Below are positions 5,955 to 37,627 of a stretch of 54,452 bases of DNA, one piece after another. Source of the DNA: an uncultured Actinomycetes bacterium (GTDB lineage Bacteria; Actinomycetota; UBA4738; HRBIN12); contig CAZZND010000001.1 of NCBI GenBank assembly GCA_964655465.1, positions 1 to 54,452 of the forward strand, written 5' to 3'. The position numbers and the translations under genes are program-made. The notes under the pieces are model-generated. The model had not been told where the DNA came from. It was given only the letters and a program-made list of their open reading frames with translations, and made no database searches. Position 1 is the stretch's first letter. Every line of letters begins with the position of its first letter.

Positions 5955-5983
5955 CTTGACACCCGAAGTGTCGACTGTAGACA
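5955..5983 (+). promoter_or_regulatory. Promoter with phased GTNNAC operator (site 1), upstream of the oxidoreductase operon
   Basis: TTGACA (5956-5961), a 16-nt spacer, then TAGACA (5978-5983). GTCGAC-T-GTAGAC at 5970-5982 overlaps the -10. Confidence 0.6.
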
Positions 5984-6050
5984 ATCCGCGCGAACGGCCG
6001 GGAGAACTGGCCGGCACGGCGATCGGGGAGGGGAGCGTGAAGCGCTCGTC

Positions 6051-7691
6051 GTGACCTACGACGCGATCATCATCGGTGGCGGCCACAACGGGCTCGTCGC
6101 CGGCTTCTACCTCGCGAAGGCCGGGCTGAAGCCGCTCATCCTCGAGCGACGCCCGTTCGTCGGCGGCGCCTGCAACACGGAGGAGTTCGCTCCCGGGTTC
6201 CGGGCCTCGACCGGCGCCTACGTGCTCTCGATGCTCCGCGAGGCCATCTGGTGGGACATGCGTCTCGTGCAGCGAGGGATCGTCGTCGACCCCGCAGGCC
6301 CGACGCTGAACCTCAACCCCGACGGCGCCGCGTTCCACCTCGGTGACGACATGGCGGCGAACATCGAGGAGACGAAGCGGTTCTCCCCGAAAGATGCCCT
6401 CGCGTTGCCTCGTTTCGAGGACGACCTGGCCGAGATGGCGGGTGCCGTCACGCCGGCGTTCAACTGGACCGCGCCCGACCCGCGCCTGCGCAAGCCCTCC
6501 GACCTCCGCGAGCTCGCCCGCTGGGGACGGATCGGGCTGCGTCATCGGCGGCGGTTGGCCGACCTGGCGTTCCTGTTCTCCACCTCGGCGGCGCGGTTCC
6601 TCGACGAACGGTTCGAGGACGATCACGTGAAGGCGGCGATCGGGTGGCACGCCATCAACGACAGCCTGGCGGGTCCGTCGACCCCCGGGACCGCCTACGT
6701 CCTGCTGCACGACCACGCGAGCGAGGAGACCGGCGGCGGTGTCCGTCGGTGGGGCTTCGTCCGCGGCGGGATGGGTCGGCTCACGGCGAGCATGGCGGAG
6801 GCCGCGCGCGAGGCGGGTGCCGAGATCCGGTGCGACACCGAGGTCGAGCGCATCCTCACTCGCGGCGGCGTGGCGGTCGGCGTCGAGCTCGCGAACGGAG
6901 AGGTCCTGCAGGCCCCGCGCGTGCTGTCCAACGCCGACCCGAAGCGGACGTTCCTGCGTCTGTGCGACCGCGGTGACCTACCCGAGGACTTCCTGGCGAA
7001 GATCGAGGCCTACCGCTGCATCGGTACGAGCATCAAGATCAACCTCGCGGTCTCGGAGCTGCCACAGGTTCGTGGGCTCCCCGAAGGGGGCGTCCAGCCG
7101 TACCACCGTGGGATCATGGAGCTCAACCCGTTCATCCCCGATATGGACCGCCAGCAGGCCCAGGCGATGCAGGGGATCCCGGCGGATCCCTCGCACGTCG
7201 AGCTGTGCTTCCCGACGGTGCACGATCCTTCGCTCGCACCCGAGGGCAAGCACGTCGTCACGATCGACGTGAACTCGCAGCCGTACGCGTTGCGAGACAC
7301 CGACTGGGACACCATCCGCGATGACCGCGCGGACCGCGCGATCGCGCAGATCGCGGAGTACTTCCCCAAGCTCCCCGACCTGATCGAGCATCGTCAGGTC
7401 CTGACGCCGCTCGATATGGAGCGAGTGATGGGGCTCACGGGTGGCCATGCGCTGCACGGCGACATGTCGCCCGACCAGCTGTTGTTCCTGCGTCCGGTCC
7501 GAGGCTGGGCGGACTATCGGACGCCGATCCGAGGGCTGTACCTCTGCGGCGCCGGCACCCATCCGGGTGGCGGTGTCACGGGGGCGAACGGACGCAACGC
7601 CTCTCGTGAGGTGCTGCGTGATGCGCGCACACGGATGCGCCGAGCCAGGAGGGGGAAGGTCGATGGGACGTCGAGCGATCCAGCGGCGTGA
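6051..7691 (+). CDS. NAD(P)/FAD-dependent oxidoreductase, phytoene-desaturase (CrtI)/PYROXD2-like family, paralog 1
   Basis: In-frame GTG at 6051 is followed at once by a Rossmann dinucleotide motif (YDAIIIGGGHNGLVAGFYLAKAGLKPLILERRPFVGGAC). The C-terminal block is LYLCGAGTHPGGGVTGANGRNA. The upstream part of ORF 5733.. is Arg/Pro-rich and overlaps the promoter. Confidence 0.85.
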   Translation: MTYDAIIIGGGHNGLVAGFYLAKAGLKPLILERRPFVGGACNTEEFAPGFRASTGAYVLSMLREAIWWDMRLVQRGIVVDPAGPTLNLNPDGAAFHLGDDMAANIEETKRFSPKDALALPRFEDDLAEMAGAVTPAFNWTAPDPRLRKPSDLRELARWGRIGLRHRRRLADLAFLFSTSAARFLDERFEDDHVKAAIGWHAINDSLAGPSTPGTAYVLLHDHASEETGGGVRRWGFVRGGMGRLTASMAEAAREAGAEIRCDTEVERILTRGGVAVGVELANGEVLQAPRVLSNADPKRTFLRLCDRGDLPEDFLAKIEAYRCIGTSIKINLAVSELPQVRGLPEGGVQPYHRGIMELNPFIPDMDRQQAQAMQGIPADPSHVELCFPTVHDPSLAPEGKHVVTIDVNSQPYALRDTDWDTIRDDRADRAIAQIAEYFPKLPDLIEHRQVLTPLDMERVMGLTGGHALHGDMSPDQLLFLRPVRGWADYRTPIRGLYLCGAGTHPGGGVTGANGRNASREVLRDARTRMRRARRGKVDGTSSDPAA

Positions 7692-9096
7692 GCTTCTCAA
7701 GATGGGCGCGGCAGCGGCCGTGCTCGGGGCGACGGGCGGTCTCACGCAGGCCGCGGCCGCGCGCCCGCGTTTCGCCGCGGCGCTCGCAGGCGCGCAGGGC
7801 CTGAGCCCCGCCGGGCCCGAGCTGGCGCTCCCACCGGGGTTCTCCTACAAGACGCTGTCGCCGTTCGGCTCGGCGCTGAGCGACGGGTTCCCGTGCCCGC
7901 CGATCCACGACGGGATGGGCGTCTACACCAACCCCGGCGGCGGCTACCGGATCGTGCGCAACCACGAGCTGGGCAGCGGGAACGACATCGGGCCCGGCAC
8001 GGTGATCGGCCGTCCGTGGACGGCATACGACCGGCTGGCACCCGGCGGCACGGTGACGCTCGTGGTCGACGGCGACGCGAACCTCGTCGAGCACTACATC
8101 AGCCTGAACGGCACCGACACCAACTGCGCGGGTGCCGAGACCCCGTGGGGCACGTGGCTCTCGTGCGAGGAGACGACGGTCGGCACCCACAGGGGCTGGG
8201 GCAAGCCGCACGGCTACCTGTTCGAGGTCGACCCGATGGGCGACGGCTCCGACGTCGGCAGACCGATCAAGGCTGCCGGACGGTTCGTGCACGAAGCGGC
8301 GGCGGTCGATCCCGAGACGTCGGTCGTGTTCATGACCGAGGACTGGAACCCCGACGGCTTCTACCGCTACGTCCCGGACGCCCCGGGCAACCTCCTCAAG
8401 GGCGGGGTCCTGCAGGCGCTGAAGGTGAAGGGTCATCCCCTGTACAACACCATCCAAGGCGAGACGGTCGGCGCCGTCTTGCCGGTGAGCTGGGTCGACA
8501 TCGACGACCCGGACCCGGACGACGCCGAGCGTGACGCCCGCGCGGTGCTCAAGCAGGCGAAGGCCAGGGGGGCCGCGCAGTTCCTCTCGGGGGAGGGGTG
8601 CACGTGGCGCGGCGACTCCGTCGTGTTCAGCTGCGGCGACGGCGGCGACAACGGCCGAGGGCAGATCTGGCAGTACACGCCGACGTCCAAGCGAGGGAGG
8701 GTCGGGGAGGAGGGCGAGCTGGTCCTGCTGTACCAGTCCACCGGCAAGGGACAGCTCGACTTCCCGGACAACCTGTGCACCAGCCCCGGTGGGGCGATCG
8801 TGATCGCGGAGGACGGCGACGACGAGCGGAACTTCCTGCGGGTCCTGCTCCCCGACGGGACGATCTTCGCCCTGGCCGAGAACCTCGTGCTGCTGCGCAA
8901 GCACATCATCGACGCGTCCGGCAAGCTCTACGACCCGACGGTGCCCGACGACGACTTCCACATCGACGACGGGGTCGGCGCCGGTGAGATGGCGGGCCCG
9001 CGGTTCAGCCCCGACGGGAAGTGGCTGTTCGTCAACATCCAGGTGCCGGGGGTCACGTGCGCGATCACCGGCGACTGGGACAGCCTGGGGATGTGA
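7663..9096 (+). CDS. Tat-secreted PhoX/DUF839-family phosphatase-like protein
   Basis: ATG at 7663 follows the RBS AGGAGGGGGAAG. Twin-arginine signal MGRRAIQRRELLKMGAAAAVLG. Blocks CAGAETPWGTWLSCEE, FEVDP, GRFVHEAAAVDP and MTEDWNPDGFYRY are typical of PhoX/DUF839. Confidence 0.8.
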   Translation: MGRRAIQRRELLKMGAAAAVLGATGGLTQAAAARPRFAAALAGAQGLSPAGPELALPPGFSYKTLSPFGSALSDGFPCPPIHDGMGVYTNPGGGYRIVRNHELGSGNDIGPGTVIGRPWTAYDRLAPGGTVTLVVDGDANLVEHYISLNGTDTNCAGAETPWGTWLSCEETTVGTHRGWGKPHGYLFEVDPMGDGSDVGRPIKAAGRFVHEAAAVDPETSVVFMTEDWNPDGFYRYVPDAPGNLLKGGVLQALKVKGHPLYNTIQGETVGAVLPVSWVDIDDPDPDDAERDARAVLKQAKARGAAQFLSGEGCTWRGDSVVFSCGDGGDNGRGQIWQYTPTSKRGRVGEEGELVLLYQSTGKGQLDFPDNLCTSPGGAIVIAEDGDDERNFLRVLLPDGTIFALAENLVLLRKHIIDASGKLYDPTVPDDDFHIDDGVGAGEMAGPRFSPDGKWLFVNIQVPGVTCAITGDWDSLGM

Positions 9097-10466
9097 CGAC
9101 GAGCACCGTGCGACCACCTGTGACGCACGACGTCGTTCCGAACGTGCGGACGGACCTGCCCGGCCCGAAGAGCCGGGAGGTCCTCGCGCGCCTCGATGAC
9201 GTGCTCTACGCGGGGCTGGTCCACGAGCTCGGACCGTTCGTCATCACCCGCAAGCACGGGTCAACGGTCGAGGACATCGACGGCAACGTGTTCCTCGACC
9301 TGCTCTCGGCGATGGCGTCCGTCCCGCTCGGCGCCGGTCACGAGCGGATCATGGAGGCGGCGCTCGAGGCCCACCGCCGCTTCGGCCTCGAGGACGCGCA
9401 CTTCTACGCGCACGAGCACATGCTGCCACTGTCCGAGAAGCTGCTGGCGGTGGCGCCCGAGGGGTTGGCGCGCGTCGACATCGCGCTGAACGGGACCGAA
9501 GCTGTCGAGACCATGGTGCGCTTCATGCGTCGCGCGACCGGCCGCCCGATCGTGATCGGCTTCATGGGCGGTTACCACGGCGAGGCAGGGACCGCGGGGG
9601 CGCTCAGCGCCGAGACGAGCGACCTGTCGACGGGGTACCGAGCGCTGATGCCCGGGTTCGCCCACGTGCCATACCCCAACCCGTACAGGACCCCGTTCGA
9701 GCCGCGCTCGGGCGGGACCGGCGACGGCACGATCGACTACCTGCGCGACCACGTGTTGTTCCACGCGATCGACGCGAGTGAGGTGGCGGGCGTGGTGATC
9801 GAGCCCGTGCTCGGCTCCGGCGGGTGCGTGGCGCCCCCGGTCGCGTTCTGGCCTGCGCTCCGCGAGCTCTGCGATGAGCACGGCTGGCTGCTGGGTGTCG
9901 ACGAGGTGAAGTCCGGCTACGGCCGGAGCGGTGCGATGTTCGCGATCGAGCGGAGCGGGGTGCGACCCGACCTGATGGCGCTCGGCAAAGCGATGGGCGG
10001 CGGCGTGATGCCGATCGGCGCCGTGCTCGGCACCGATCGAGCCATGGGCTTCGATGACCTCTCGACGGGGTCGACCTGGTCGTGGTTCCCGGCCTCCTGC
10101 GCGGCCGCGCTCGAGACGCTCGCGATCTTCGAGGAAGAGGACATCCTCGGCAACGTGGCGGCGCTCGAAGCGATCGGCGCCGAGGCGCTCGGGGGGCTGA
10201 TGGCGCGTCACACGTCGATCGGCGACGTGCGCGCGATCGGCGGCTTCCAGGCGATCGAGTTCGTCAAGGACCGCGTGACCGAAGAGCGCGATCTGGATCT
10301 TCAGGAGGCGGTCGCGTGGGCGATGGCAGGGCGAGGGGTGCTGGCGGACTCGTCGACGACCTCGCTGAACATCCAACCGTCACTCGTGCTCGCGCCTGAC
10401 GCCCTTCGTCGCGCGTACGCGATCGTGGGCGAGGCCATCGACGAGGCGGAGCGCGACGCCCGCTGA
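9093..10466 (+). CDS. Class-III (omega) aminotransferase, paralog 1
   Basis: GTG at 9093 overlaps the upstream stop (ATGTGA). It has the LPGPKS N-terminal block, DEVKSGYGRSGAMFA, and the PLP-lysine block LGKAMGGG. Confidence 0.85.
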   Translation: MTTSTVRPPVTHDVVPNVRTDLPGPKSREVLARLDDVLYAGLVHELGPFVITRKHGSTVEDIDGNVFLDLLSAMASVPLGAGHERIMEAALEAHRRFGLEDAHFYAHEHMLPLSEKLLAVAPEGLARVDIALNGTEAVETMVRFMRRATGRPIVIGFMGGYHGEAGTAGALSAETSDLSTGYRALMPGFAHVPYPNPYRTPFEPRSGGTGDGTIDYLRDHVLFHAIDASEVAGVVIEPVLGSGGCVAPPVAFWPALRELCDEHGWLLGVDEVKSGYGRSGAMFAIERSGVRPDLMALGKAMGGGVMPIGAVLGTDRAMGFDDLSTGSTWSWFPASCAAALETLAIFEEEDILGNVAALEAIGAEALGGLMARHTSIGDVRAIGGFQAIEFVKDRVTEERDLDLQEAVAWAMAGRGVLADSSTTSLNIQPSLVLAPDALRRAYAIVGEAIDEAERDAR

Positions 10467-11578
10467 TGCGCGACGACGAGGCTCTCGCCTGGGCGGGCGA
10501 CGAACTGCTGGCGCTCGTCGGCATCGGGTCGACCAGTGGGCACGAGCACGCGGCCGTCCACCATCTCGAGGAGCGCTGCGCGGCCTGGGGGCTGCCGGCG
10601 CGTCGCCTCCCCGTCGGGAGCGCTGCCGACGACCTGGTGATCGGATGGGCGGCCGAGCCGCGGCTCCTGCTGACCGCGCACATCGACACGATCGTGCCCG
10701 AGTGGGAGTGGACGGCGGCGCGCGAGGGCGACCGGGTGCGCGGGGTCGGCGCGGGCGACGACAAGGGCTCGATCGTGGCATCCGCGCTCGGCATGGTGCT
10801 TGCACGGGAGCAGGGGATCTCGCTCGAGGACCTGCCCGTCGCGCTCGGTGTGTGTACCGATGAGGAGCTCACCGGTCTCGGGTCGATCGCGATGGCGACG
10901 GCCTTGCGCCCCGAGTTCGTCGTCGCGGGCGAGCCGTCGCGGCTCCGGATCGGTGTCGCCGAGGCCGGGTTCGTCGACGCCCGATACCGCGTGCTCGGCC
11001 GTTCGGTGCACGGCTCGTTCCCCGAGCTCGGCGACAACGCCATCGAGAAGATGGCACGGATGATCGTGGCCGTGCACGAGGAGCCGTTCGCGCAGGTCAC
11101 CCACCCGCTGCTCGGCCGCAACGTCCCCGGCGCCCTGCAGATCGAGGGAGGCGGTGACCTCCACGTGATCCCCGGCCGCGCCTCCACTCGGATCGAGGTC
11201 CGGGTGGTCCCCGGCGGCCCCTCGGCGACCGAGATCGAAGCGAGGATGCGGCAGATCGCCGCCGACCATGACGCCGAGGTCGAGCTCGTGGAGCCGAGCG
11301 TCGAGCCGTTCGAGACCGACCCGGGCGGCCCGCTCGTCCACGCGCTGCAGGATGCGGTCGAGGTGGTGTGCGGGTCTCGCGCCGAGGAGATCGGGGTCCC
11401 GGCGTGGACGGACGCACACAACTTCGTCGACCTCGCGGGTGCTCAGGCGGTCGTGTGGGGACCGGGCGACTTCGAGCTTGCGCACGACGCCGACGAGGCG
11501 ATCGATCTGCACCAGGTAGTCACGGCGGCACGCGTCGTCGAACGGCTGCTGACCGACGCGAAGGGGTGGCTCTCGTGA
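10466..11578 (+). CDS. M20-family amidohydrolase/peptidase (ArgE/DapE-like), paralog 1
   Basis: 370-aa ORF with start ATG overlapping the upstream TGA. Metal-binding blocks LLLTAHIDTIVP and GAGDDKGS, then AWTDAHNF near the C-terminus. Confidence 0.85.
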   Translation: MRDDEALAWAGDELLALVGIGSTSGHEHAAVHHLEERCAAWGLPARRLPVGSAADDLVIGWAAEPRLLLTAHIDTIVPEWEWTAAREGDRVRGVGAGDDKGSIVASALGMVLAREQGISLEDLPVALGVCTDEELTGLGSIAMATALRPEFVVAGEPSRLRIGVAEAGFVDARYRVLGRSVHGSFPELGDNAIEKMARMIVAVHEEPFAQVTHPLLGRNVPGALQIEGGGDLHVIPGRASTRIEVRVVPGGPSATEIEARMRQIAADHDAEVELVEPSVEPFETDPGGPLVHALQDAVEVVCGSRAEEIGVPAWTDAHNFVDLAGAQAVVWGPGDFELAHDADEAIDLHQVVTAARVVERLLTDAKGWLS

Positions 11579-13161
11579 CCGCGGACGCGGTGGTCGTCGG
11601 GGCCGGGCACAACGGCCTCGTCACGGCGTTCTACCTGGCGCGCGCCGGTCTGAAGACCGTCGTGCTCGAACGGCGCGACGTCGTCGGGGGCGCCTGCGTC
11701 ACCGAGGAGTTCGCGCCGGGATCCCGGGCTTCGCCCGGCGCCTACGTCTTGTCGATGCTGCGTCCCGCCGTCTGGAGGGACATGCGTCTGGCCGAACGTG
11801 GGCTCCGTGTGGTGCCGGGCGGCCCCTCGCTCAACGTGTTCCCTGACGGGTCGTCGTTCACGCTGCACGCCGACACACACGCCGCGGTCGACGAGATCGA
11901 ACGGCTCGACCCCCGAGACGCCCGTGCGTTCCCCGCCTACGAGCGGCGGCTCCAGCAGGTCGCGCAGATGCTGCTGCCTCTCATCGACCGCGCGCCGTTC
12001 GATCCCCGCGTCCGCCGTCCGAGGGACCTCCGCGAGCTCCTCCACCTCGCCGGCATGGCCTGGCGGCATCGGGGGGAACTAGCCGACGCCGCGTTCCTGT
12101 TCTCGACGTCGGCGCGGCAGTACCTCGACGAGCATTTCCGGAGCGAGGAGCTCAAGGCGGCGCTCGGGTGGGAATCGATCAGCAACACGCTCGCCGGACC
12201 GTCGACGCCGGGTACCGCGTACGGTTTGCTGCACGAGGCCGCGTCAGGCGGGTCGGGCGGCGGTATCGGCTGGGGATTCGTCGATGGCGGCATGGGCGAG
12301 GTGACTCGTCTGATGGCCGAGGCGGCAGGCGAGGCCGGTGCTGTGATCCGCACCGGCGCCTCTGTCGCGCGCGTCCGCATCCAGCGCGGCCGAGCCAACG
12401 GGGTGGTGCTCGCCGACGGCCAGGAGATCGCGGCCGCCCGGGTGGTGTCCAACGCTGACCCGCGGCGCACGTTCGGGCTCGTGGACGCCGAGCACCTCCC
12501 CGAGTCGTTCGTGGCCTCCCTCGGTGCCTACAAGATCCGCGGCGCGAGCCTCAAGATCAACCTGGCCGTTGCCGAGCTGCCACGCCTGCGTGGTGACCGC
12601 AGCACCGAGGTACAGCCGTACCACCGCGGGCTCATCCAGGTCACGAAAACCCTGGGTGAGATGGATGCCGATCAGGCGATGGCCCGCGCCGGCACGCCGG
12701 CGGAGCGTCCGCACCTCGAAGTCTGCTTCCCGTCGGTCCACGACCCGTCGCTCGCGCCCGAGGGGCGACACGTGGTCACCGTCGGCGCTCGCTCGCAGCC
12801 CTATGACCTTCGCGGTACGACGTGGGACGAGCTGCGCGAGGTGGTCGCGGACCGGGTGATCGCCCAGCTCGGCGAGGTGTTCCCCGACCTGCCCGGCGCG
12901 GTCCTGCACAGCGAGGTGCTCTCGCCACTCGACCTCGAGCGCAGGCTCGCCCTCACCGGCGGGCACCACCTGCACGGCGACATGTCGCCCGATCAGCTGT
13001 ACTTCCTGCGGCCCGTCCGTGGGTACGCCGACTACCGCACGCCGGTGCCGGGGCTCTACCTCTGCGGCGCCGGCACCCATCCCGGCGGTGGTGTGACCGG
13101 GGCCAATGGCCGCAACGCCGCGGCCGTCATCCTCCGAGACGCCCGGAAAGGACGACGTTGA
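11575..13161 (+). CDS. NAD(P)/FAD-dependent oxidoreductase, CrtI/PYROXD2-like, paralog 2
   Basis: GTG at 11575 overlaps the upstream stop (GTGA). It has DAVVVGAGHNGLVTAFYLARAGLKTVVLERRDVVGGAC and is collinear along its whole length with the 6051-7691 product, sharing the same C-terminal LYLCGAGTHPGGGVTGANGRNA. Confidence 0.85.
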   Translation: MTADAVVVGAGHNGLVTAFYLARAGLKTVVLERRDVVGGACVTEEFAPGSRASPGAYVLSMLRPAVWRDMRLAERGLRVVPGGPSLNVFPDGSSFTLHADTHAAVDEIERLDPRDARAFPAYERRLQQVAQMLLPLIDRAPFDPRVRRPRDLRELLHLAGMAWRHRGELADAAFLFSTSARQYLDEHFRSEELKAALGWESISNTLAGPSTPGTAYGLLHEAASGGSGGGIGWGFVDGGMGEVTRLMAEAAGEAGAVIRTGASVARVRIQRGRANGVVLADGQEIAAARVVSNADPRRTFGLVDAEHLPESFVASLGAYKIRGASLKINLAVAELPRLRGDRSTEVQPYHRGLIQVTKTLGEMDADQAMARAGTPAERPHLEVCFPSVHDPSLAPEGRHVVTVGARSQPYDLRGTTWDELREVVADRVIAQLGEVFPDLPGAVLHSEVLSPLDLERRLALTGGHHLHGDMSPDQLYFLRPVRGYADYRTPVPGLYLCGAGTHPGGGVTGANGRNAAAVILRDARKGRR

Positions 13162-14802: not shown

Positions 14803-14829
14803 GCTGACTGTCGACCGTTGACAAGATCT
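14803..14829 (+). promoter_or_regulatory. Phased GTNNAC operator array (site 2) with promoter, upstream of the binding-protein operon
   Basis: GCTGAC-T-GTCGAC-C-GTTGAC-A-AGATCT, four hexamers with 7-bp period. TTGACA at 14818-14823 is a possible -35, with a TAGCGT -10-like box ~19 nt downstream. Confidence 0.55.
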
Positions 14830-15965: not shown

Positions 15966-15987
15966 CGACATGAAAGGAGAGTTGCCC

Positions 15988-17085: not shown

Positions 17086-17116
17086 GAGTCGCGGGAAGGG
17101 GCGAAGAGGGAGCGCC

Positions 17117-17725: not shown

Positions 17726-17735
17726 TGAGGGAGCG

Positions 17736-24551: not shown

Positions 24552-24554
24552 AGC

Positions 24555-27094: not shown

Positions 27095-27095
27095 C

Positions 27096-28762: not shown

Positions 28763-28773
28763 ATACGAGATCC

Positions 28774-29258: not shown

Positions 29259-30455
29259 TCAGGATCGAAGACCGAGCTCACGGCCGACGCGGCCGAAGAT
29301 GGCGATGGCCTCGTCGAGATCGTCGTCAGTATGGTCCGCGGTCACGATGGTGCGCACGCGCGCCCGACCCTTCGCCACCGTCGGGAACACGATCGCCGGG
29401 GCGAACACCCCGGCGTCGAACAGCGCGGCGGCGAACGCCTGGGCCGTCGACTCGTCGCTGGTGATCACCGGGGTGATCGGGGTCTCCGACCCGCCCGTGT
29501 CGAACCCGAGCCCGGCCAGCCCCTCCTTGGATCGTGCGGTGTTCGTCCACAGGCGCTCGAGCCGCTCGGGCTCGTCGCGCATGACGCCGAGCGCCTCGAG
29601 GCATGCCGCCGCCACCGCGGGCGGCGTCGATGTCGAGAACAGGTACGGACGCCCGCGTTGTCGCAACCACTCGATGAGGTGGGCCGGGCCCGCGATGAAC
29701 CCGCCGAGCACGCCGATCGCCTTCGACAGCGTCCCCACCTGGATGTCGACGCGGCCGTGCAGGCCGAAGTGGTCGACCGTGCCTGCGCCGCCCGCGCCGA
29801 GGACCCCGCTCGCGTGTGCATCGTCGACCATCATGATCGCGCCCCGCCGCTCGGCGACCTCGACCAGGTCCGGCAGGGGCGCGATGTCGCCGTCCATAGA
29901 GAACACGCCGTCGGTGATCAGCAGCTGCCGGCGGGCCTCGCCGGCGGTCTCGGCCAACAGACGCTCGGCATGGGCGGCGTCGGCGTGCTCGTAGACCTCG
30001 ATCCTGGCCTTCGACAACCGGGCGCCATCGATGATCGACGCGTGGTTGAGCCGGTCGGACACGATCACGTCCTCGGGCCCCAAGATCGCGGCGACGGTGC
30101 CGGCGTTCGCGGCGAACCCCGACTGGAACATCAGCGCCGCTTCCGCGTGTTTGAAGGCGGCGAACCGTTCCTCCAACTCGACGTGCAGGTCCATCGTCCC
30201 CGCGATCGTTCGGACCGCCCCCGAGCCGGCGCCCAGGTCGCGGGCAGCCCGTGCCGCCGCCTCGTTGAGGCGCGGATGGTTCGCGAGACCCAGGTAGTTG
30301 TTCGACGCGAGGTTGATCACCTCGCGACCGTCGAAGGTCGCGCGGGCTCCGGTCGGGCCGGACAAGGTGCGCGACCGCAGGAGCAGCCCGTCGGCCTCGA
30401 GGCTGGCGACCTCGTCGCGGAGGAACGCGAGCCGGTCCACGGATCCAGCTGACAT
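29259..30455 (-). CDS. kbl: Glycine C-acetyltransferase (2-amino-3-ketobutyrate CoA ligase), Kbl/BioF family
   Basis: ATG at 30455 (MSAGSVDRLAF...) gives 398 aa. Blocks are NLASNNYLGLANHP, VRTIAGTMDLHVELE, VSDRLNHASIIDG, DDAHASGVLG and GTLSKA (PLP Lys). The LNHASIIDG block and the length favour Kbl over BioF. Confidence 0.78.
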   Translation of the reverse strand: MSAGSVDRLAFLRDEVASLEADGLLLRSRTLSGPTGARATFDGREVINLASNNYLGLANHPRLNEAAARAARDLGAGSGAVRTIAGTMDLHVELEERFAAFKHAEAALMFQSGFAANAGTVAAILGPEDVIVSDRLNHASIIDGARLSKARIEVYEHADAAHAERLLAETAGEARRQLLITDGVFSMDGDIAPLPDLVEVAERRGAIMMVDDAHASGVLGAGGAGTVDHFGLHGRVDIQVGTLSKAIGVLGGFIAGPAHLIEWLRQRGRPYLFSTSTPPAVAAACLEALGVMRDEPERLERLWTNTARSKEGLAGLGFDTGGSETPITPVITSDESTAQAFAAALFDAGVFAPAIVFPTVAKGRARVRTIVTADHTDDDLDEAIAIFGRVGRELGLRS

Positions 30456-30469
30456 GGTCGACAGTCTAC
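30456..30469 (-). promoter_or_regulatory. Phased GTNNAC operator (site 5a) with -10 TAGACT, directly abutting the kbl start codon
   Basis: The minus strand reads TAGACT-GTCGACC-ATG. The plus strand reads GTCGAC-A-GTCTAC at 30457-30469. The geometry fits a leaderless transcript. Confidence 0.6.
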
Positions 30470-30505
30470 CGTCATGGATGGCAACCCCAGGTGGTGTTGT
30501 CACCG

Positions 30506-30521
30506 GTTGACGGTCTACCAT
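30506..30521 (+). promoter_or_regulatory. Phased GTNNAC operator (site 5b) with -10 TACCAT, 6 nt upstream of the GntR start
   Basis: GTTGAC-G-GTCTAC at 30506-30518. TACCAT at 30516-30521 is followed by GGGTGC and ATG 30528. Confidence 0.6.
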
Positions 30522-30527
30522 GGGTGC

Positions 30528-31196
30528 ATGACGCAACTCACTCCACTGGAGGTGCCTCGTTCCCTCGCCGAGGACGCCGCCGACCGCGTTCGGGAACAGA
30601 TCCTGTCCGGCGGATTCGCCCAGGGCGAGCACCTCGTTGAAGCGAAGATCGCCGAGCAGCTCGGGATCAGCCGCGGGCCGGTGCGCGAAGCCTTCAAGCT
30701 GCTGCGCGCCGAGGGCCTACTGCAGGAAGAGCCCCGGCGTGGGACCTTCGTGGTACGGATGGTGCCGGACGATGTGCGCGAGATCTACGGGCTCCGGGCC
30801 TCGATCGAAGGACGGGCCGCCCGGATGGTGGCGGGAGCGCGAGACGACGATGTGCTCGGAAGGCTTCGGACGAGACTCGGCGCGATCGACGACGCCGTCC
30901 GGAGCGGCGACGCTGCCGCGGTGTTCCAGGCAGACCTGGCGTTCCACCAGGAGATGGTCGCCCTGGCCGGCAACAGCAGGATCGCCGAGGTGTTCGCCAG
31001 GTACGTGCCGACGCTCCGAGCGTTGCTCCGGCTCGATGAGCATGTCTACCGTTCGCTCGACGACATCGCGATGGAGCACCGGCCGTTGTTCGAGGCTATC
31101 GAAGCCGGAGACGCCGACGAAGCTGCTCGGCTCGCCGAGCAACACTGCGACCACGCGGGCGACCTGATCGCCGACTACGTCGAAAGCGGCGGGTAG
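30528..31196 (+). CDS. GntR-family transcriptional regulator (FadR/VanR-like, FCD ligand domain)
   Basis: Starts MTQLTPLEVPRSLAEDAADRVREQILSGGFAQGEHLVEAKIAEQLGISRGPVREAFKLLRAEGLL (GntR wHTH). The C-terminal region is all-helical and FCD-like. I chose ATG 30528 over 30474 because of the promoter geometry. Confidence 0.85.
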   Translation: MTQLTPLEVPRSLAEDAADRVREQILSGGFAQGEHLVEAKIAEQLGISRGPVREAFKLLRAEGLLQEEPRRGTFVVRMVPDDVREIYGLRASIEGRAARMVAGARDDDVLGRLRTRLGAIDDAVRSGDAAAVFQADLAFHQEMVALAGNSRIAEVFARYVPTLRALLRLDEHVYRSLDDIAMEHRPLFEAIEAGDADEAARLAEQHCDHAGDLIADYVESGG

Positions 31197-31216: not shown

Positions 31217-31239
31217 GTAGACGGTTGACGATCTACCAT
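31217..31239 (+). promoter_or_regulatory. Phased GTNNAC operator (site 6) with promoter, upstream of ABC system 2
   Basis: GTAGAC-G-GTTGAC-G-ATCTAC at 31217-31236. The -10-like box is TACCAT at 31234-31239. Confidence 0.6.
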
Positions 31240-31306: not shown

Positions 31307-32431
31307 ATGCGTCGTCGATCTCTCGGTGCGGTCGCCTTGGCAGCGACCTTCGCGATCTTCTCGGCGGCGTGTTCGTCCGACACGACGCCGTCCGAACCCA
31401 CGAGCTCGGCGGGCGGGACCGCGACCGCAGCCCCCTCGGGCCCCCTGCGGTTGTTCTCCTACAGCGACGGGTTCGATCCGACCTACATGGAGACGTTCTT
31501 CGAGGAGTACCCCGACATCGAGCTCGAGACCGCCGCGTTCGGGTCGAACGACGAAGCCATCGCCAAGCTCCTCGCGGGCTTCGAGGCCGACGTCGTGAAC
31601 AGCTGTGTCGACGAGGCAACCCTTGAGATGGTGACCAGGGGTCTGTACCAGCCGCTGGATCTGTCGCGTCTCGAGCATTGGGAAGAGCTCTTCCCGTCGA
31701 TGAAGGAGCTTCCCGGCGTCGTGGTGGATGGGCAGGCATACATCGTGCCGGTCGATGCCGGCACCGCAGGGATCATGTACGACGCCGACGTGGTCACCGA
31801 GACGCCGGATTCATGGCTCGACCTGTTCGACCCGCAGTGGGCGGACCGCGCCTCGATTGAAGACCTGTCCGTGACCGCGATCGACATCGGCGCCCTCGCG
31901 ACGGGCATCACCGACCCGATCGGCATGGATGAGGCGCAGCTGGAGCAGGTCAAGCAGTTCCTCATCGACAACCGTGGTCAGTTCCGCACGTTCTGGAAGG
32001 GCGAAGCGGACATCAAGGCACAGTTCAAGAACGGCGAGGTGGTGATCGCGAGCGGGTATCCCGGCACCGCGAAGTCTCTCCGGGATCAGGGCGTGAACGT
32101 CCAGTTCGCGCAGGCGTCGGAGGGTCAGCCGCTGTGGACGTGCGGCTACGGGATCAGCCCCGAGGCCGAGAACCTCGACGCCGCGTACGCGCTGCTGAAC
32201 TGGTACACGAGCCTTCCCCCGCAGATCTACGCGGCCGAGAACTTCAGCTATGTCACGTCGAACAGCAAGATCGTCGACGAGGTGTCCGAGGACGTGCTCA
32301 ACGCCACGGGGATCATGCGCTTCGTCACCGGAGCTGACGGCGCCCCCGCCGACGTCAACCTGATCCCGGCGAGCCCGCCTGAAGACTCAGAGGCCTGGCG
32401 CGCGGCCTGGACCGAGGTCAAGGCGTCGTAG
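31307..32431 (+). CDS. ABC transporter substrate-binding lipoprotein, PotD/PotF family, paralog 4
   Basis: 374-aa ORF preceded by the RBS GGGGAGGG. The signal peptide ends IFSAACSS. It is collinear with SBP paralogs 1-3. Confidence 0.9.
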   Translation: MRRRSLGAVALAATFAIFSAACSSDTTPSEPTSSAGGTATAAPSGPLRLFSYSDGFDPTYMETFFEEYPDIELETAAFGSNDEAIAKLLAGFEADVVNSCVDEATLEMVTRGLYQPLDLSRLEHWEELFPSMKELPGVVVDGQAYIVPVDAGTAGIMYDADVVTETPDSWLDLFDPQWADRASIEDLSVTAIDIGALATGITDPIGMDEAQLEQVKQFLIDNRGQFRTFWKGEADIKAQFKNGEVVIASGYPGTAKSLRDQGVNVQFAQASEGQPLWTCGYGISPEAENLDAAYALLNWYTSLPPQIYAAENFSYVTSNSKIVDEVSEDVLNATGIMRFVTGADGAPADVNLIPASPPEDSEAWRAAWTEVKAS

Positions 32432-33330
32432 TGGCCATCGCCGCCGAGCGAGGCCTGCCGCCGCTCGCGGCTCCCGGCACCGACGCGCTGCGGCGGCGCC
32501 GTGCCGCCGGGCGGTGGGCCTGGCGCGCGTTCCTCGGCGTCGTCGGGCTCGTTCTGTTCGGGCCCCTGCTGATCCTCGTCGCGTTCGCGTTCAGCGATTC
32601 GAACATCCTCGCCTTCCCGTTCGAAGGTGTCACGACCCGCTGGTTCACGGCGGTGTTCGACGACGCGCTCCTGCGGAAGGCGCTCGTGAACTCCTTCGTG
32701 ATCGCCGCCATCGTCACGCCGGTCTGTCTGGTCTTGGGGACCCTCGCCGCGTTCGGGCTGACCCGCTTCCGCTTCCGTGGCCGAGGTGCGGTCGGCGGTC
32801 TGGTCGCCGCGCCGCTCGTGCTGCCCTGGCTCCTTATCGGGATCGCCGCGTTGATGGCGTACGCCAGGCTGGACATCGAACTGTCGCGTGGCACGGTCAT
32901 CGTCACGCAGATCGTGTGCACGTTCCCGCTGGTCACGGCCATCGTCGCGGCGCAGCTGTTCCGGTTCCAGCGAACCCAGGAAGAGGCCGCGATCGACCTC
33001 GGCTGCTCGCGGCTTCAGGTATTGCGCTACATCATCTTGCCGCACATCGGTCCTGCCCTCGCCGCGGCGGCGATCTTCGCGTTCACCTGGTCGTTCAACA
33101 ACTACGAGATCAGCCTGTTCACGATCGGATTCGACATGACCTTCCCGATCTGGGTGTATTCGTCGGTCCGCAACCCCGACCACACCGCCGTCGTCAACGC
33201 CGTCTCCACGCTGATCTCGGCGGCGCAGGTGGTGCTGATCGTGATCGCGGTGCAGCTTCTGCGGGCCAGAGGCGGCAGCGTGCACGCCATGGCGGGCAGC
33301 GAGATGGCGACGGCGGCGGCGAAGACCTGA
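32431..33330 (+). CDS. ABC transporter permease (PotC-like), system 2
   Basis: 299-aa ORF whose GTG overlaps the upstream TAG by 1 nt. The EAA loop is EEAAIDLGCSRLQVLRYIILPHIGPAL. It is collinear with 21637-22518. Confidence 0.85.
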   Translation: MAIAAERGLPPLAAPGTDALRRRRAAGRWAWRAFLGVVGLVLFGPLLILVAFAFSDSNILAFPFEGVTTRWFTAVFDDALLRKALVNSFVIAAIVTPVCLVLGTLAAFGLTRFRFRGRGAVGGLVAAPLVLPWLLIGIAALMAYARLDIELSRGTVIVTQIVCTFPLVTAIVAAQLFRFQRTQEEAAIDLGCSRLQVLRYIILPHIGPALAAAAIFAFTWSFNNYEISLFTIGFDMTFPIWVYSSVRNPDHTAVVNAVSTLISAAQVVLIVIAVQLLRARGGSVHAMAGSEMATAAAKT

Positions 33331-34214
33331 TGGCTGCCACCGACCCCGGCATCGTCCGTCCCGCGTTCGGGCGTCCTCTCCGGCGCCACGGCGGCGCGGT
33401 CGGGATCTTGTTCGCACCCGTCACGCTGCTCGTGATCTTGTTCCTCGGGCCGATGCTGATCATGGTGCAGATGAGCGTCGTCAGGTTCCCGCCGAGCACC
33501 GCCGGGGGCTACACGCTCGGGCATTACGCCGACGTGCTCACGAACGAGCTCAACCGCACCATCGCGGTCAACACCGCGTTCATCGCAACGACCTCGATGA
33601 TCGTCATGCTCGCGATCGCGATCCCGCTCGCGTACTACCTGGCGTTCAAGGCGCGGAAGTGGGAGCTCTGGATGTTGCTCGCGCTCGTCCTGGCCGACGA
33701 GCTCGCGCCCGTCGTGAAGATCTACGCCTGGCAGGTGATCCTCGGCCGCAACGGGATCGCGAACTACCTGATCCCGGGCGAGCCCGTGGACTGGCTCATC
33801 TACAGCCGGTTCGCCGTCATCCTCACGCTCGCGACCACCTACATCACGTACACCACGATCCCGATCTACGCGGCGATGAAGGCGATCGACCCCACGGTGT
33901 TCGAGGCGTCGACCGACCTCGGGGCCGGCTGGTGGCCACAGGCCCGGCGCATCCTGATCCCTCTGGCCGCCCCGGGCATCTTCATCGCTCTGATCCTCGT
34001 GTACATCCCGATGCTCACGGACTTCGTTACCTCCGACATCGTCGGCGGCGCGGGCGGGGGCACGTACATGCTGGGCCAGCGCGTGCGCGACCTGATCCTG
34101 CAGGGCGCGAACTGGGGTCCCGGCGCAGCGCTCAACTTCCTGCTCCTGATCACGTCCGGGGTGCTCGCCCTGGCCGCCTACCGACTCGCCAAGCTGAACA
34201 GGATCCAGACATGA
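33330..34214 (+). CDS. ABC transporter permease (PotB-like), system 2
   Basis: ATG at 33330 overlaps the upstream TGA. The EAA loop is FEASTDLGAGWWPQARRILIPLAAPGI. It is collinear with 22512-23393. Confidence 0.85.
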   Translation: MAATDPGIVRPAFGRPLRRHGGAVGILFAPVTLLVILFLGPMLIMVQMSVVRFPPSTAGGYTLGHYADVLTNELNRTIAVNTAFIATTSMIVMLAIAIPLAYYLAFKARKWELWMLLALVLADELAPVVKIYAWQVILGRNGIANYLIPGEPVDWLIYSRFAVILTLATTYITYTTIPIYAAMKAIDPTVFEASTDLGAGWWPQARRILIPLAAPGIFIALILVYIPMLTDFVTSDIVGGAGGGTYMLGQRVRDLILQGANWGPGAALNFLLLITSGVLALAAYRLAKLNRIQT

Positions 34215-35365
34215 CCGCACGCACGCAGGGCGCTGGAGAGCTCGTCGTCGACAGATGCACGAAGGCGTTCGGCGATGTCGTCGCCGTGAATGACGTCACC
34301 CTCGAGATCCCGAGCGGTGGGTTCTTCTCGATGCTCGGTCCGTCGGGATGCGGCAAGACCACGACCCTCAGGATGATCGCGGGTTTCGAGACGCCCGACC
34401 GCGGGAGGATCCTCCTCCGCGGCGGCGACGTCACGGGGCTGCCTCCGCAGCGCCGCGACGTGAACATGGTCTTCCAGTCCTACGCCCTGTTCCCCCACAT
34501 GACGGTCGCCGAGAACGTCGCGTTCGGGCTCAAGATCAAGCGGGTCGCTCGCGCCGAGGTTGGCCCCCGCGTGGAGGAGGCGCTTCGAACCGTCCGGCTC
34601 GACGGCCTCGCTGACCGTCGCCCGAGCCAGCTGTCGGGGGGTCAGCAGCAGCGGGTCGCCCTCGCTCGCGCGCTCGTCAATCGCCCGGCCGCGTTGCTGC
34701 TCGACGAGCCGCTGGGGGCCCTCGATCTGCAGCTGCGCAAGGAGATGCAGCTCGAGCTCAAGCAGTTGCAGGTGCGTACCGGAACGACGTTCGTCTATGT
34801 GACCCACGACCAGGAAGAGGCGATGACCATGTCGGATCGCATCGCGGTCATGAGCGGCGGCGTCGTCGAACAGCTGGCCCCGCCGCGCGAGCTCTACCAG
34901 CGCCCGGCCACCCCGTTCGTCGCTGGATTCATCGGCGTGTCCAACCTGATCGAGCTCCGCGTCGACGATCGCGCCGATGGGCGGCTGATCATGCGCATCG
35001 GAGAGGGCGAGCGGATCTTGGCCGTGGACCCCGGCGGGGTCGACGGGAGCGCGACCATCACCGTGCGCCCCGAATGGATCCGGCTCGCCCCGAGCGGTGC
35101 GTCGACGGACGACGGCTCCTCGTCGGTCACCGGCACGGTGTCCGACGTCGTGTACCTCGGCTCCGTCACCCAGGTGCTCGTCGACCTCCGGACGGGGGAG
35201 CGCCTCACGGTGCACCGGCTCAACGACGAGGTGGCTGCCGTGGATCCTCGTCCCGGCGACGAGGTCGTCCTACGATGGGCCGCCGAGCACAGCTACGTGA
35301 TCGGGTCCCCAGGCGCGGGTACGGAAGAGGAAGCGAGCCCCGTCGGGGCGCGAGGAGAGGGGTAG
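34211..35365 (+). CDS. ABC transporter ATP-binding protein (PotA-like), system 2 (intact Walker B)
   Basis: ATG at 34211 overlaps the upstream stop (ATGA). It has GPSGCGKTT, LSGGQQQRVALARALVNRPAALLLDEPLGALD and YVTHDQ. Confidence 0.9.
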   Translation: MTARTQGAGELVVDRCTKAFGDVVAVNDVTLEIPSGGFFSMLGPSGCGKTTTLRMIAGFETPDRGRILLRGGDVTGLPPQRRDVNMVFQSYALFPHMTVAENVAFGLKIKRVARAEVGPRVEEALRTVRLDGLADRRPSQLSGGQQQRVALARALVNRPAALLLDEPLGALDLQLRKEMQLELKQLQVRTGTTFVYVTHDQEEAMTMSDRIAVMSGGVVEQLAPPRELYQRPATPFVAGFIGVSNLIELRVDDRADGRLIMRIGEGERILAVDPGGVDGSATITVRPEWIRLAPSGASTDDGSSSVTGTVSDVVYLGSVTQVLVDLRTGERLTVHRLNDEVAAVDPRPGDEVVLRWAAEHSYVIGSPGAGTEEEASPVGARGEG

Positions 35366-35369
35366 ACCG

Positions 35370-36689
35370 ATGGCCAGGTTGAGCGCGAGCCAGATCGTTG
35401 AGATGTCCAAGCGGTACACGATGTTCGACTGGCAGGCGCAGTCCAAGGTTTCGCCGATCCCCGTGGAGCGCGCCAAGGGGGTCTATTTCTGGGACGTCGA
35501 CGGCAAGCGCTACCTGGATCTCAACAGCCAGCTATGGAGCGTGAACGCGGGGCACGGCGACCCGCGCATCGTGGCGGCGATCGCCAAGCAGGCCGAGCGC
35601 CTCGCGTTCATCTCGCCGTTCCAGACCTACGAGGAGCGGGCGCTGCTCGGCCAGAAGATGGCGGAGCTCCTTCCGGGAGACATCGAGAAGACCTTCTTCA
35701 CGCTGGGTGGGGCAGAGGCGAACGAGAACGCGGTCAAGATCGCGCGCATGGTGACGGGTCGCCACAAGATCCTCGCGCGCTACCGCTCGTACCACGGCGC
35801 CACCACCGGAACGATGACGCTCACGGGTGATCCGCGCCGCTGGCCGCACGAGCCCGGGCTCAGCGGCGTGGTGCACGTGCTGGACCCCTATCACGGTCCC
35901 GGACGCCCGTGGGACGATGCGGAGACGGCGCTCGCGCTCCTGGAGGAGACGATCGAGCTCGAGGGGCCCGAGTCGATCGCGGCCTTCTTCCTGGAGACGA
36001 TCACCGGCACGAACGGCGTTCTGATCCCGCCCGATGGCTACCTGCAAGGGGTTCGTGCGCTCTGCGACCGCTACGGGATCCTGATGGTGTGCGACGAGGT
36101 CATGTGCGGCTTCGGGCGCACCGGGGAGTGGTTCGGAGTCAACCACTGGGGCATCGTCCCCGACCTGATGTCGATGGCGAAGGGACTCACGTCCTCCTAC
36201 GTCCCGCTCGGGGCCCTCGGGCTGCGGCCCCACGTCGCGGCCCACTTCGAGGACAACGTGTTCGGAGCGGGGCTCACCTACAACAGCCATCCGGTTGGGG
36301 TCGCCACCGCGCTCGCCACGATCGCCGTCTACGAAGAGGACGGCCTGGTCGAGAACGCGAAGAAGATGGGCGAGGTCATGGCTCGTCACCATCAGGAGCT
36401 GAAGGCGAAGCACCCGAGCGTGGGCGACGTGCGCAGCATCGGGCTGTTCGGCGTGATCGACCTCGTGAAGTCGCAGGCCACCGGAGAGCCGATGTCGCCG
36501 TTCAACGTCACGAACGAGGTCATGGGCAAGATCAACCGTTACCTGCTCGATCACGGGGTCGCGACGGTGGTCCGGTGGTGGAGCGTGAACACCAACCCGC
36601 CGCTGTGCATCGACGAGGAGCAGCTCGGCGAGGCCTTCGAGGTGCTCGACCAGGCGCTGGTGATCGCCGACGAAGCCATGGAGGACTGA
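35370..36689 (+). CDS. Class-III (omega) aminotransferase, paralog 3
   Basis: 439-aa ORF. It has SYHGATTGTMTLTG, CDEVMCGFGRTGEWFG and the PLP-lysine block SMAKGLTSSYVPLG. Confidence 0.88.
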   Translation: MARLSASQIVEMSKRYTMFDWQAQSKVSPIPVERAKGVYFWDVDGKRYLDLNSQLWSVNAGHGDPRIVAAIAKQAERLAFISPFQTYEERALLGQKMAELLPGDIEKTFFTLGGAEANENAVKIARMVTGRHKILARYRSYHGATTGTMTLTGDPRRWPHEPGLSGVVHVLDPYHGPGRPWDDAETALALLEETIELEGPESIAAFFLETITGTNGVLIPPDGYLQGVRALCDRYGILMVCDEVMCGFGRTGEWFGVNHWGIVPDLMSMAKGLTSSYVPLGALGLRPHVAAHFEDNVFGAGLTYNSHPVGVATALATIAVYEEDGLVENAKKMGEVMARHHQELKAKHPSVGDVRSIGLFGVIDLVKSQATGEPMSPFNVTNEVMGKINRYLLDHGVATVVRWWSVNTNPPLCIDEEQLGEAFEVLDQALVIADEAMED

Positions 36690-36694
36690 ACCTC

Positions 36695-37564
36695 GTGCGC
36701 GAGCGCGTCGGGTTCATCGGCCTCGGCATCATGGGCCGGCCGATGGCGAAGAACCTGCTCGCCGCCGGGTTCCCGCTCACGGTGCACTCCCGGAGCCCGG
36801 ATCCCGTCGATGAGCTGGTCTCCCTGGGAGCGGCGCGTGGGGAGGGGCCGGCCTCGGTCGCGGCGGCCAGCGACATCACGATCACGATGCTGCCCGACAC
36901 CGCCGATGTCGAGCAGGTCCTGACGGGCCCCGGCGGCGTGATCGAGGCTGCGGCCGCGGGCTCGCTCGTGATCGACATGAGCTCGATCGATCCCGGGCCG
37001 ACGAGCGCGATGGCGGCGGCCTTCGGGGACCGGGGCGTTGCGATGCTCGATGCGCCGGTCAGCGGCGGTGAGAAGGGGGCGACCGAGGCGGCCCTCTCGA
37101 TCATGGTCGGTGGCGACGGGGCCGCGTTCGAACGCGCCCGGCCGGTGTTCCAGGCCCTGGGGAAGAACATCGTGCACGTCGGGCCGGCCGGTGCCGGACA
37201 GGTGTGCAAGGCGTGCAACCAGCTGGTGGTCGCCGCCACGATCGAAGCCGTTGCTGAGGCCTTGCTGCTCGCCGAGCGTTCCGGTGTGGATCCCGCCAAG
37301 GTCCGCGAGGCGCTGATGGGCGGGTTCGCGGGGTCGAAGATCCTCGAGGTGCACGGACAGCGGATGCTCGACCGTGCGTTCGACCCCGGATTCCGGATCC
37401 GGCTGCACCGCAAGGACGCGAGGATCGTGGAAGACGCCGCCGCAGTAGCCGGATCCCCCATCCCGTCGTTCGCGGTGGTCGCTCAGCAGCTGCAGGCGGC
37501 GGTCGAGGCCGGGGACGGGGAGCGCGACCACTCGGCGCTGTTCGCCGAGCTCGAACGATCGTAG
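36695..37564 (+). CDS. NAD(P)-dependent 3-hydroxyacid dehydrogenase (HIBADH/tartronate-semialdehyde-reductase family)
   Basis: In-frame GTG at 36695. It has VGFIGLGIMGRPMAKNLL (Rossmann), DAPVSGG and the CKACNQL block. Confidence 0.85.
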   Translation: MRERVGFIGLGIMGRPMAKNLLAAGFPLTVHSRSPDPVDELVSLGAARGEGPASVAAASDITITMLPDTADVEQVLTGPGGVIEAAAAGSLVIDMSSIDPGPTSAMAAAFGDRGVAMLDAPVSGGEKGATEAALSIMVGGDGAAFERARPVFQALGKNIVHVGPAGAGQVCKACNQLVVAATIEAVAEALLLAERSGVDPAKVREALMGGFAGSKILEVHGQRMLDRAFDPGFRIRLHRKDARIVEDAAAVAGSPIPSFAVVAQQLQAAVEAGDGERDHSALFAELERS

Positions 37565-37600
37565 TCGGGCACGCGGCATGCTCTGCAGCGGAATCTTTGG

Positions 37601-37627
37601 GTCTACTGTCGACTGTTGACGATCTAC
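37601..37627 (+). promoter_or_regulatory. Phased GTNNAC operator array (site 7, the most regular) with promoter, upstream of the PhoA-type phosphatase
   Basis: GTCTAC-T-GTCGAC-T-GTTGAC-G-ATCTAC, four hexamers with 7-bp period. TTGACG at 37615-37620 is followed after an 18-nt spacer by TAGGAT at 37639-37644. Confidence 0.65.

Follow-up and report, generated by a model that had tools for sequence, protein, structure and literature searches.

Regulators of the FadR subfamily of the GntR family share the operator consensus NyGTM-N0-1-KACNy, and the GT and AC of the core are separated by 2 nt in the GntR, HpxS, HypR, MdcY, PrpR, and UxuR groups (PMC4494728; Suvorova et al. 2015). In 13 FadR groups, weaker "additional boxes" of unexplained function lie 7 to 12 nt from the site center (PMC4494728). 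Among FadR-type proteins, only Escherichia coli NanR has been shown to bind in tandem: three dimers assemble cooperatively and side by side on the three tandem hexamers of the (GGTATA)3 operator, and their cooperativity depends on an N-terminal extension of 32 residues that has been described as a feature of NanR alone (PMC8012715). Here, we analyzed a 54,452-nucleotide stretch of DNA from an uncultured Actinomycetes bacterium (contig CAZZND010000001.1; referred to below as the window), in which an earlier reading (the original prediction) had noticed arrays of two to four GTNNAC hexamers at eight promoter-proximal places and had proposed them as the shared operator of a gene island. We conclude that these arrays most likely serve as the operator for a FadR-subfamily GntR protein, the product of positions 30528 to 31196 (gntR, plus strand). 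Its dimers would occlude RNA polymerase at eight promoters, including that of gntR itself, until a metabolite bound through the FCD domain releases them.

The eight sequences were found at the coordinates originally given for them. The paired 13-mer GTNNAC-N-GTNNAC (GTNNACNGTNNAC) matched nine times at eight places in the window, compared to 0.55 ± 0.72 matches (maximum, 3) in the 100 dinucleotide-preserving shuffles that served as the null for 13-mer frequency. Among GTNNAC-to-GTNNAC spacings of up to 40 nt, a distance of 7 was seen nine times and all others one to four times each; 7 was the only enriched distance. Coding DNA makes up 94.1% of the window. Single GTNNAC hexamers were distributed as chance would have it, 227 of the 253 being coding, whereas all nine paired 13-mers fell into the noncoding 5.9% (P ~ 1e-10 for eight independent places). 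The original prediction had named a similar density of paired units inside genes as decisive against itself, and the counts clearly show no such density. A position weight matrix (PWM) trained exclusively on sites of other genomes and then run on the window found exactly the eight places, with 18 positions scoring at least 14 bits versus 0.67 in shuffles; its sole match within confirmed coding sequence was weak (10.7 bits at position 9258).

The related sites come from a homolog scan with the regulator protein across one genome per species (185,579 species), and the sequence covered comprised about 20 kb per related genome plus the 54 kb of the window. Thirty-five orthologous loci (L001 to L035), all in metagenome-assembled genomes (MAGs) of uncultured soil Actinomycetota, encode a regulator 58 to 84% identical to that of the window; an alphaproteobacterial homolog at 37% identity (L036) lacks the motif. 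The strict 13-mer occurs 35 to 170 bp upstream of gntR in 34 of the 35 loci and right after the gntR stop codon in 29; another conserved copy, the third, is found just ahead of the GrdE-like gene. In the reverse test, a PWM trained exclusively on the window detected 83 clusters outside the mapped coding sequence of the 35 loci, nearly all at 17 to 25 bits, and three weak clusters (12 to 13.5 bits) within mapped coding DNA, which is about 3-fold longer. The targets of these clusters were gntR (35/35 loci), the SBP4 operon (29 loci), GrdE (at least 7 loci, plus 3 unlabeled), and AOX1 (5 loci), joined in some loci by divergent SDR, AT3b, Kbl, and M20b genes. Phylogenetic footprinting in relatives, a check the original prediction had proposed, thus showed the phased hexamers to be conserved: in a MAFFT alignment of 14 gntR upstream regions, the spacers otherwise failed to align (mean column identity, 45%), invariant columns were confined to three phased hexamers, and the −10 box was conserved at the ≥70% level.

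The sites also track operon 5′ ends as gene order shifts. In three loci in which the grd genes are fused behind AOX1-AT3a-SGL-SDR (L017, L026, and L029), there is a site at AOX1 and none at GrdE; in loci with GrdE as the first gene of a separate operon, the site directly adjoins this gene. The most divergent ortholog (58% identical; L033) lies in an unrelated neighborhood without any cluster gene, and a four-box, A/T-richer array, GTTTAC-G-GTAAAT-T-GTCAAC-A-GTTAAC (9818 to 9849 of that locus), about 150 bp upstream of the regulator, is the sole site in 20 kb. Because the array is kept there in the absence of the cluster, the motif travels with the regulator. This distribution is in keeping with the autoregulation and island-wide control envisaged originally. 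It also bears on whether the arrays might be a chance or compositional product of GC-rich DNA, a concern raised by the 71 copies of GTCGAC alone in the window. Shuffles, spacing, placement, the cross-genome PWMs, and positional conservation in 35 genomes all contradict that explanation, which we reject as having next to no probability.

The 69 sites define the core K-GT(C/T/A)(G/A)AC-N-GT(C/T)(G/A)AC-M. The position before the first box is G or T in 61 of 69 sites, and that after the second (position 14) is A or C in 65/69 (A, 60; C, 5); the spacer nucleotide between the two boxes is mixed (T, 27; G, 18; A, 14; C, 10). GT and AC are 2 nt apart in every box, and the inner positions are mostly C and G, giving GTCGAC. 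The 2-nt gap is that documented for several FadR-subfamily groups (PMC4494728), which upholds the earlier statement that GT..AC cores are typical of GntR-family operators. Measured against the subfamily consensus, GTCGAC (M = C, K = G), GTAGAC, and GTCTAC conform, and GTTGAC and GTCAAC deviate at M or K. A third hexamer in 7-bp phase (offsets −7 and +14) is present in 31% of contexts versus 4.3% at other offsets, and a fourth showed no general enrichment in the same flank-offset count. The usual array thus joins a weaker third box to two strong ones; arrays of four, as in L033 and at the eighth site of the window, are exceptional.

Like described FadR-subfamily repressors, the system presented here combines a winged helix-turn-helix (wHTH) and an FCD domain with a GT-NN-AC core carrying K/M-type flanks, and it shares with them weaker auxiliary boxes 7 to 12 nt from the site center and, probably, autoregulation and control of local transporter and catabolic genes (PMC4494728). 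It differs in having two equally strong full cores 1 nt apart, extendable to three or four boxes, in its GC-rich rather than A/T-rich operator, and in an ortholog group that, as found, is limited to uncultured soil Actinomycetota. The operator fits the picture of an auxiliary box raised to a second full-strength core. Streptomyces coelicolor HypR was excluded as a relative with the same motif, its experimental motif, CTNTGC(A/C)ATGTCAC, being unrelated.

The regulator itself (222 amino acids) matches the GntR wHTH (PF00392; E = 1.7e-17; 63.2 bits versus a cutoff of 27) and FCD (PF07729; E = 7e-24; 85.1 bits versus a cutoff of 24.3) models, and its nearest PDB chains are all FCD-type GntR proteins. 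Judged by its domains, it belongs to the FadR subfamily (FCD type) of the GntR family. As originally stated, gntR is the sole GntR-family gene among the open reading frames (ORFs) annotated across the window, the other regulators being an AsnC-type protein, a sigma factor, and a histidine kinase. Conservation among the orthologs is 87% in the wHTH, where SRGPVRE and PRRG never vary, and 63% in the FCD domain. Residues D136, H140, H184, and H206 are 100% conserved and align to the metal-site residues of TM0439 (numbering as in PMC6608401); a His-triad metal site, with Asp, is typical of most FCD domains (PMC6608401). The match to the TM0439 site suggests a metal-assisted ligand pocket in the FCD domain. 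The N-terminal arm ahead of the wHTH is short, at about 12 residues in the window protein and 8 to 20 in the orthologs.

In the NCBIfam comparison, no curated family model passed its cutoff for this protein. The best was TIGR03338 (phnR_burk; E = 2.4e-41; 141.7 bits versus a cutoff of 271.5), and the NanR model NF003011 reached 56.2 bits versus a cutoff of 260, with LldR likewise far lower than PhnR; membership in PhnR, NanR, and LldR was ruled out, each scoring under its curated cutoff. The protein resembles PhnR (TIGR03338) as a GntR/FCD regulator of PotD-like ABC importer and aminotransferase genes but differs in that the predicted targets here are, among others, the genes for amine oxidases and a Grd-type selenoprotein reductase. 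Ten regulon proteins scanned against NCBIfam gave no match to PhnW/PhnX-type models, in a comparison that included no dedicated search for those genes.

The arrays could be bound by some other transcription factor, be it the AsnC/Lrp-type protein of the island or one encoded elsewhere, with gntR merely one of its targets. The wHTH is invariant across orthologs and offers no protein-DNA covariation that would tie the GntR protein to the motif, an AsnC-type regulator is indeed encoded in the island, and the sequence examined is local. Against this, the AsnC/Lrp-type gene (17117 to 17596, within the SBP1-SBP2-M20-SBP3 operon) has a counterpart in none of the 35 related loci, all of which keep the motif; its product therefore cannot be the conserved binder and was rejected. 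The motif accompanies gntR outside the cluster in L033, and GT-N2-AC is the motif class of FadR-type GntR proteins (PMC4494728). Nor do the sites resemble the boxes of OmpR-family regulators (GlnR and AfsQ1, GTnAC-n6-GTnAC; PhoP, PHO boxes), which were ruled out because no 11-nt-period direct repeats occur at the sites: AfsQ1-type and PHO-type repeats had no matches, and the two GlnR-like matches, at 38892 and 6347, lie away from the operator sites. We therefore consider another binder quite unlikely.

The placement of the sites was read against a gene map based on third-codon-position GC (GC3) frame bias and on Pfam and NCBIfam annotation. Once starts were corrected (AOX1, GTG 6051; Perm1, GTG 21637; kbl, ATG 30455 on the minus strand; gntR, ATG 30528; PhoA, ATG 37688), every site lay upstream of a gene. 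The original placement of the sites in or at the edge of intergenic regions therefore stands, with the proviso that site 3 is intergenic only with the likely Perm1 start, GTG 21637, which is preceded by a GGAGG ribosome binding site (RBS). The alternative starts TTG 21538 (Perm1) and TTG 37616 (PhoA) would put a site inside a gene and were discarded in favor of GTG 21637 and ATG 37688, each with an RBS.

A sigma70-like promoter scan of 5.8 to 37.8 kb returned two predictions, for AOX1 and PhoA, and both overlap sites. The scan was E. coli-style and too strict for the actinobacterial TANNNT −10 box, and the remaining promoters were assigned by conservation and by eye. Site 1 (5970 to 5982; GTCGAC-T-GTAGAC, followed by A-ATC; 23.8 bits) occupies the spacer and −10 of the predicted AOX1 operon promoter (TTGACA at 5956, 18 nt, GACAAT at 5985) and has orthologous AOX1-upstream sites in L017, L022, L024, L026, and L029. 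Site 2 (14803 to 14829; GCTGAC-T-GTCGAC-C-GTTGAC-A-AGATCT; 27.0 bits) lies over a TTGACA −35-like box that precedes the SBP1 operon (ATG 14880). Site 3 (21553 to 21565; GTCGAC-T-GTCTAC; 21.1 bits) overlaps a TACTAT −10-like box in the spacer between the divergent AT3b and Perm1 genes and is common to both. Site 7 (31217 to 31236; GTAGAC-G-GTTGAC-G-ATCTAC; 20.7 bits) covers the TTGACG −35 of the SBP4 operon promoter, with the −10 TAGCTT about 18 nt downstream; in 29 orthologous loci the arrangement is GTCAAC-G-GTTGAC-A-ATCTAC, 17 nt, and TAGGTT, the second box plus A forming TTGACA. Site 8 (37601 to 37627; GTCTAC-T-GTCGAC-T-GTTGAC-G-ATCTAC, four boxes; 24.9 bits) lies over the −35 of the predicted PhoA promoter (TTGACG at 37616, 17 nt, TAGGAT at 37644), upstream of the PhoA ATG at 37688. 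SBP1 and PhoA thus share the SBP4 layout, with the array on the −35.

The other three sites sit close to start codons. Site 4 (24539 to 24551; GTAGAC-T-GTCAAC; 21.4 bits) includes a TAGACT −10-like box 3 nt before the TTG of the GrdE-like gene and has counterparts directly before GrdE in at least 10 related loci. Site 5 (30457 to 30469; GTCGAC-A-GTCTAC; 22.5 bits) reads GTAGAC-T-GTCGAC-C-ATG on the minus strand, abuts the kbl start codon (30455), and has the layout of site 4. Site 6, the putative autoregulatory site present in 35/35 orthologs, was correctly located at 30506 to 30518 but extends to the left by a degenerate box, GTCACC (30499 to 30504), so that the array spans 30499 to 30518 (GTCACC-G-GTTGAC-G-GTCTAC) and overlaps a TACCAT −10-like box 7 nt before the gntR ATG. 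At grd and kbl, GTAGAC-T-GTCrAC is followed 1 to 3 nt later by the start codon; here TAGACT would act as the −10 box and the transcript would be leaderless. The gntR array is followed by a −10 box whose end lies 6 to 7 nt before the ATG, likewise a leaderless-type layout. For all three genes (24539 to 24557; 30453 to 30469, minus strand; 30513 to 30530), the −10-like box ends about 7 to 9 nt before the start and a Shine-Dalgarno sequence is absent, so that the mRNAs may be leaderless. The start of the GrdE-like gene would be TTG (GTG in some orthologs) 1 to 3 nt past the last operator box, and TTG would be unusual for a leaderless transcript.

Every site thus overlaps a −35, spacer, −10, or start point, and at gntR and SBP4 the distance between the array and a conserved −10 box is constant. 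Since the sites lie on core promoter elements, their geometry is that of a repressor, as the original prediction had also concluded from the −10 and TTGAC(A/G) boxes. The hexamers might alternatively be promoter elements themselves (TTGAC −35-like and TAGACT −10-like boxes of a housekeeping or dedicated sigma factor) with no repressor involved: GTTGAC includes TTGAC, GTAGAC-T includes TAGACT, and both sigma70-like predictions overlap sites. However, the array position varies, from the −35 at SBP4, SBP1, and PhoA to the spacer/−10 at AOX1 and Perm1; there are conserved −10 boxes (TAGGTT) apart from the array, 9 to 17 nt away; the 7-bp tandem phase with a third box is unparalleled in promoter architecture; and GTCGAC and GTCTAC resemble neither promoter hexamer. 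We judge this explanation very unlikely. It is also unlikely that the same GntR protein activates some of the promoters or works on them as a dual regulator. Some FadR-type proteins do activate, namely FadR at some targets and CitO (PMC6608401), and the position of the sites relative to the promoter varies among targets, but none occupies a class I or II position upstream of the −35, all overlap core elements, and the promoters are already near consensus, with TTGACA or TTGACG −35 boxes.

The favored model is thus repression by the gntR product. Effector-free dimers would bind the GT-N2-AC palindromic boxes, in arrays that cover the −35 at SBP1, SBP4, and PhoA, the spacer/−10 at AOX1 and Perm1/AT3b, and, at grd, kbl, and gntR, the −10 that precedes a leaderless-type start. 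The bound regulator would exclude RNA polymerase and so repress eight promoters, its own among them. As the effector we envisage a small metabolite of the island pathway, a carboxylate or an amine-derived intermediate being the probable candidates; its binding to the putatively metal-containing FCD domain would release the regulator and induce uptake and catabolism. Several points weigh against this model. In addition to the missing covariation and the activating members of the subfamily, the sites may be more widely distributed in the genome, as those of a global factor, given the local scope of the sequence. Full palindromic cores 7 bp apart from center to center leave little room for FadR-type dimers side by side, and the gntR product is without the N-terminal extension that mediates NanR cooperativity.

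Arrays of palindromic units bound by one dimer each are familiar from the MetJ met boxes and from tandem TrpR, in which 8-bp units are arranged head to tail two to five times, the dimers bind cooperatively, and the number of units varies by operator. The analogy is functional only, since the ribbon-helix-helix of MetJ and the helix-turn-helix of TrpR are folds unrelated to GntR and the period is 8 rather than 7 bp. Along these lines, it is conceivable, though we lean against it, that each hexamer is a full dimer site and that two to four boxes recruit as many GntR dimers, spiraling cooperatively around the promoter in a MetJ- or NanR-like manner without NanR's extension. The 7-bp phase would correspond to about 240 degrees per step and return to the same face every 21 bp, and the K...M outer flanks together with the mixed shared spacer fit overlapping full sites centered on each hexamer. 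In another stoichiometry, one dimer may span a 13-mer. The system is like that of NanR in pairing a FadR-type GntR repressor with a short tandem hexamer array overlapping a promoter, but the NanR boxes are direct repeats of another sequence, and the ~32-residue extension is absent here. The NanR system requires two or more closely spaced hexamers with a dimer on each; the arrays here consist of two to four phased boxes, each of which may or may not hold a dimer. If each hexamer does hold a dimer, the GntR family would have a second, independent route to higher-order assembly, the "additional boxes" near FadR-type sites would be explained, and box number would tune repression per operon.

A site lies upstream of each predicted operon, which supports the earlier proposal that the motif joins the FAD-oxidoreductase, binding-protein, ABC, grd, kbl, aminotransferase, and PhoA genes as one unit. 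For distal genes, membership in the regulon presupposes cotranscription, judged from a common strand and overlapping or short gaps. All operons are predicted on the plus strand. Operon A (6051 to 14791), behind site 1, would comprise genes for an amine oxidase, PhoX, a class III aminotransferase, an M20 peptidase, a second amine oxidase, SGL, and SDR. Operon B (14880 to 19966) would carry SBP1, SBP2, the AsnC-type regulator, an M20 peptidase, and SBP3. The class III aminotransferase gene AT3b (20013 to 21416, minus strand) diverges from operon C (21637 to 24542), predicted to encode two ABC permeases, the first of them Perm1, and an ATPase. Operon D (24555 to 29232) holds the Grd-type genes, and the kbl-like gene for a BioF/Kbl-family acyltransferase (29259 to 30455, minus strand) diverges from gntR, the gene for the proposed cognate binder. 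Operon E (31307 to 37564), the conserved core regulon, encodes SBP4, two permeases, an ATPase, a class III aminotransferase, and a tartronate-semialdehyde-reductase-like dehydrogenase. Operon F (37688 to 40884) begins with the PhoA-type alkaline phosphatase gene and possibly continues with AlaX-like and agmatine-deiminase-like genes, its extent being a prediction. An intrinsic-terminator scan found none in 5.8 to 24.7 kb and four in 24.4 to 37.8 kb, not above shuffles; the island operons accordingly end without canonical terminator marks.

Overall, the island encodes three PotD-like uptake systems, amine oxidases, class III (omega-type) aminotransferases, a Grd-type reductase, a kbl-like gene product, and phosphatases. 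The window regulon, with its eight sites, three ABC systems, and PhoX/PhoA, extends well beyond the conserved core of three to four sites. The aminotransferase (35370 to 36689) and dehydrogenase (36704 to 37564) genes at the end of operon E are kept in nearly all loci, and the dehydrogenase scores above the cutoff of TIGR01505, the tartronate-semialdehyde (2-hydroxy-3-oxopropionate) reductase equivalog. Because an aminotransferase and a TIGR01505 dehydrogenase close the core operon, the gene content hints at import of an amino compound, which would be turned into an aldehyde and then into a hydroxy acid. Upstream of the island, an ORF of 1,296 amino acids (1661 to 5551) has an MFS transporter domain only at residues 862 to 1231, and its N-terminal ~860 residues had no Pfam match at 1e-5; the ORF could represent a gene fusion, or a mechanical ORF call could have joined two genes.

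The Grd-type genes of operon D, embedded among amine-oxidase, aminotransferase, and ABC-transporter genes, are GrdE-like, GrdB-like (25784 to 27094), GrdC-like (DUF5940), and GrdA-like (~28770 to 29232). The GrdB-like gene has an in-frame TGA (26825 to 26827) in the selenocysteine (Sec) motif LTGT-U-GTGTRCG, and the GrdA-like gene has one (28900 to 28902) in ECFV-U-TASGAMD; all in-frame orthologs keep the TGA (22/22 and 28/28, respectively). Because these codons lie in canonical Sec motifs and are conserved, uncultured high-GC soil Actinomycetota appear to encode a Sec-dependent Grd-type reductase (GrdE/GrdB/GrdC-like/GrdA). A hairpin directly after the GrdB TGA could be a Sec insertion sequence (SECIS) element. 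None of the annotated ORFs was identified as GrdD-like.

Literature searches found no prior description of this operator or gene cluster. The island is most likely a ~35-kb amine-catabolism and selenoprotein-reductase regulon of a local, autoregulated repressor. Such a repressor is a textbook mechanism, and the content of the regulon may be the more interesting lead. The operator provides a sequence-level handle on an uncharacterized island seen so far only in MAGs of uncultured soil Actinomycetota. Coregulation treats the island genes as one pathway, and the proposed ligand-responsive regulator could help find its substrate. For the GntR family, the operator is a clean natural test case for the role of auxiliary boxes at FadR-type operators.

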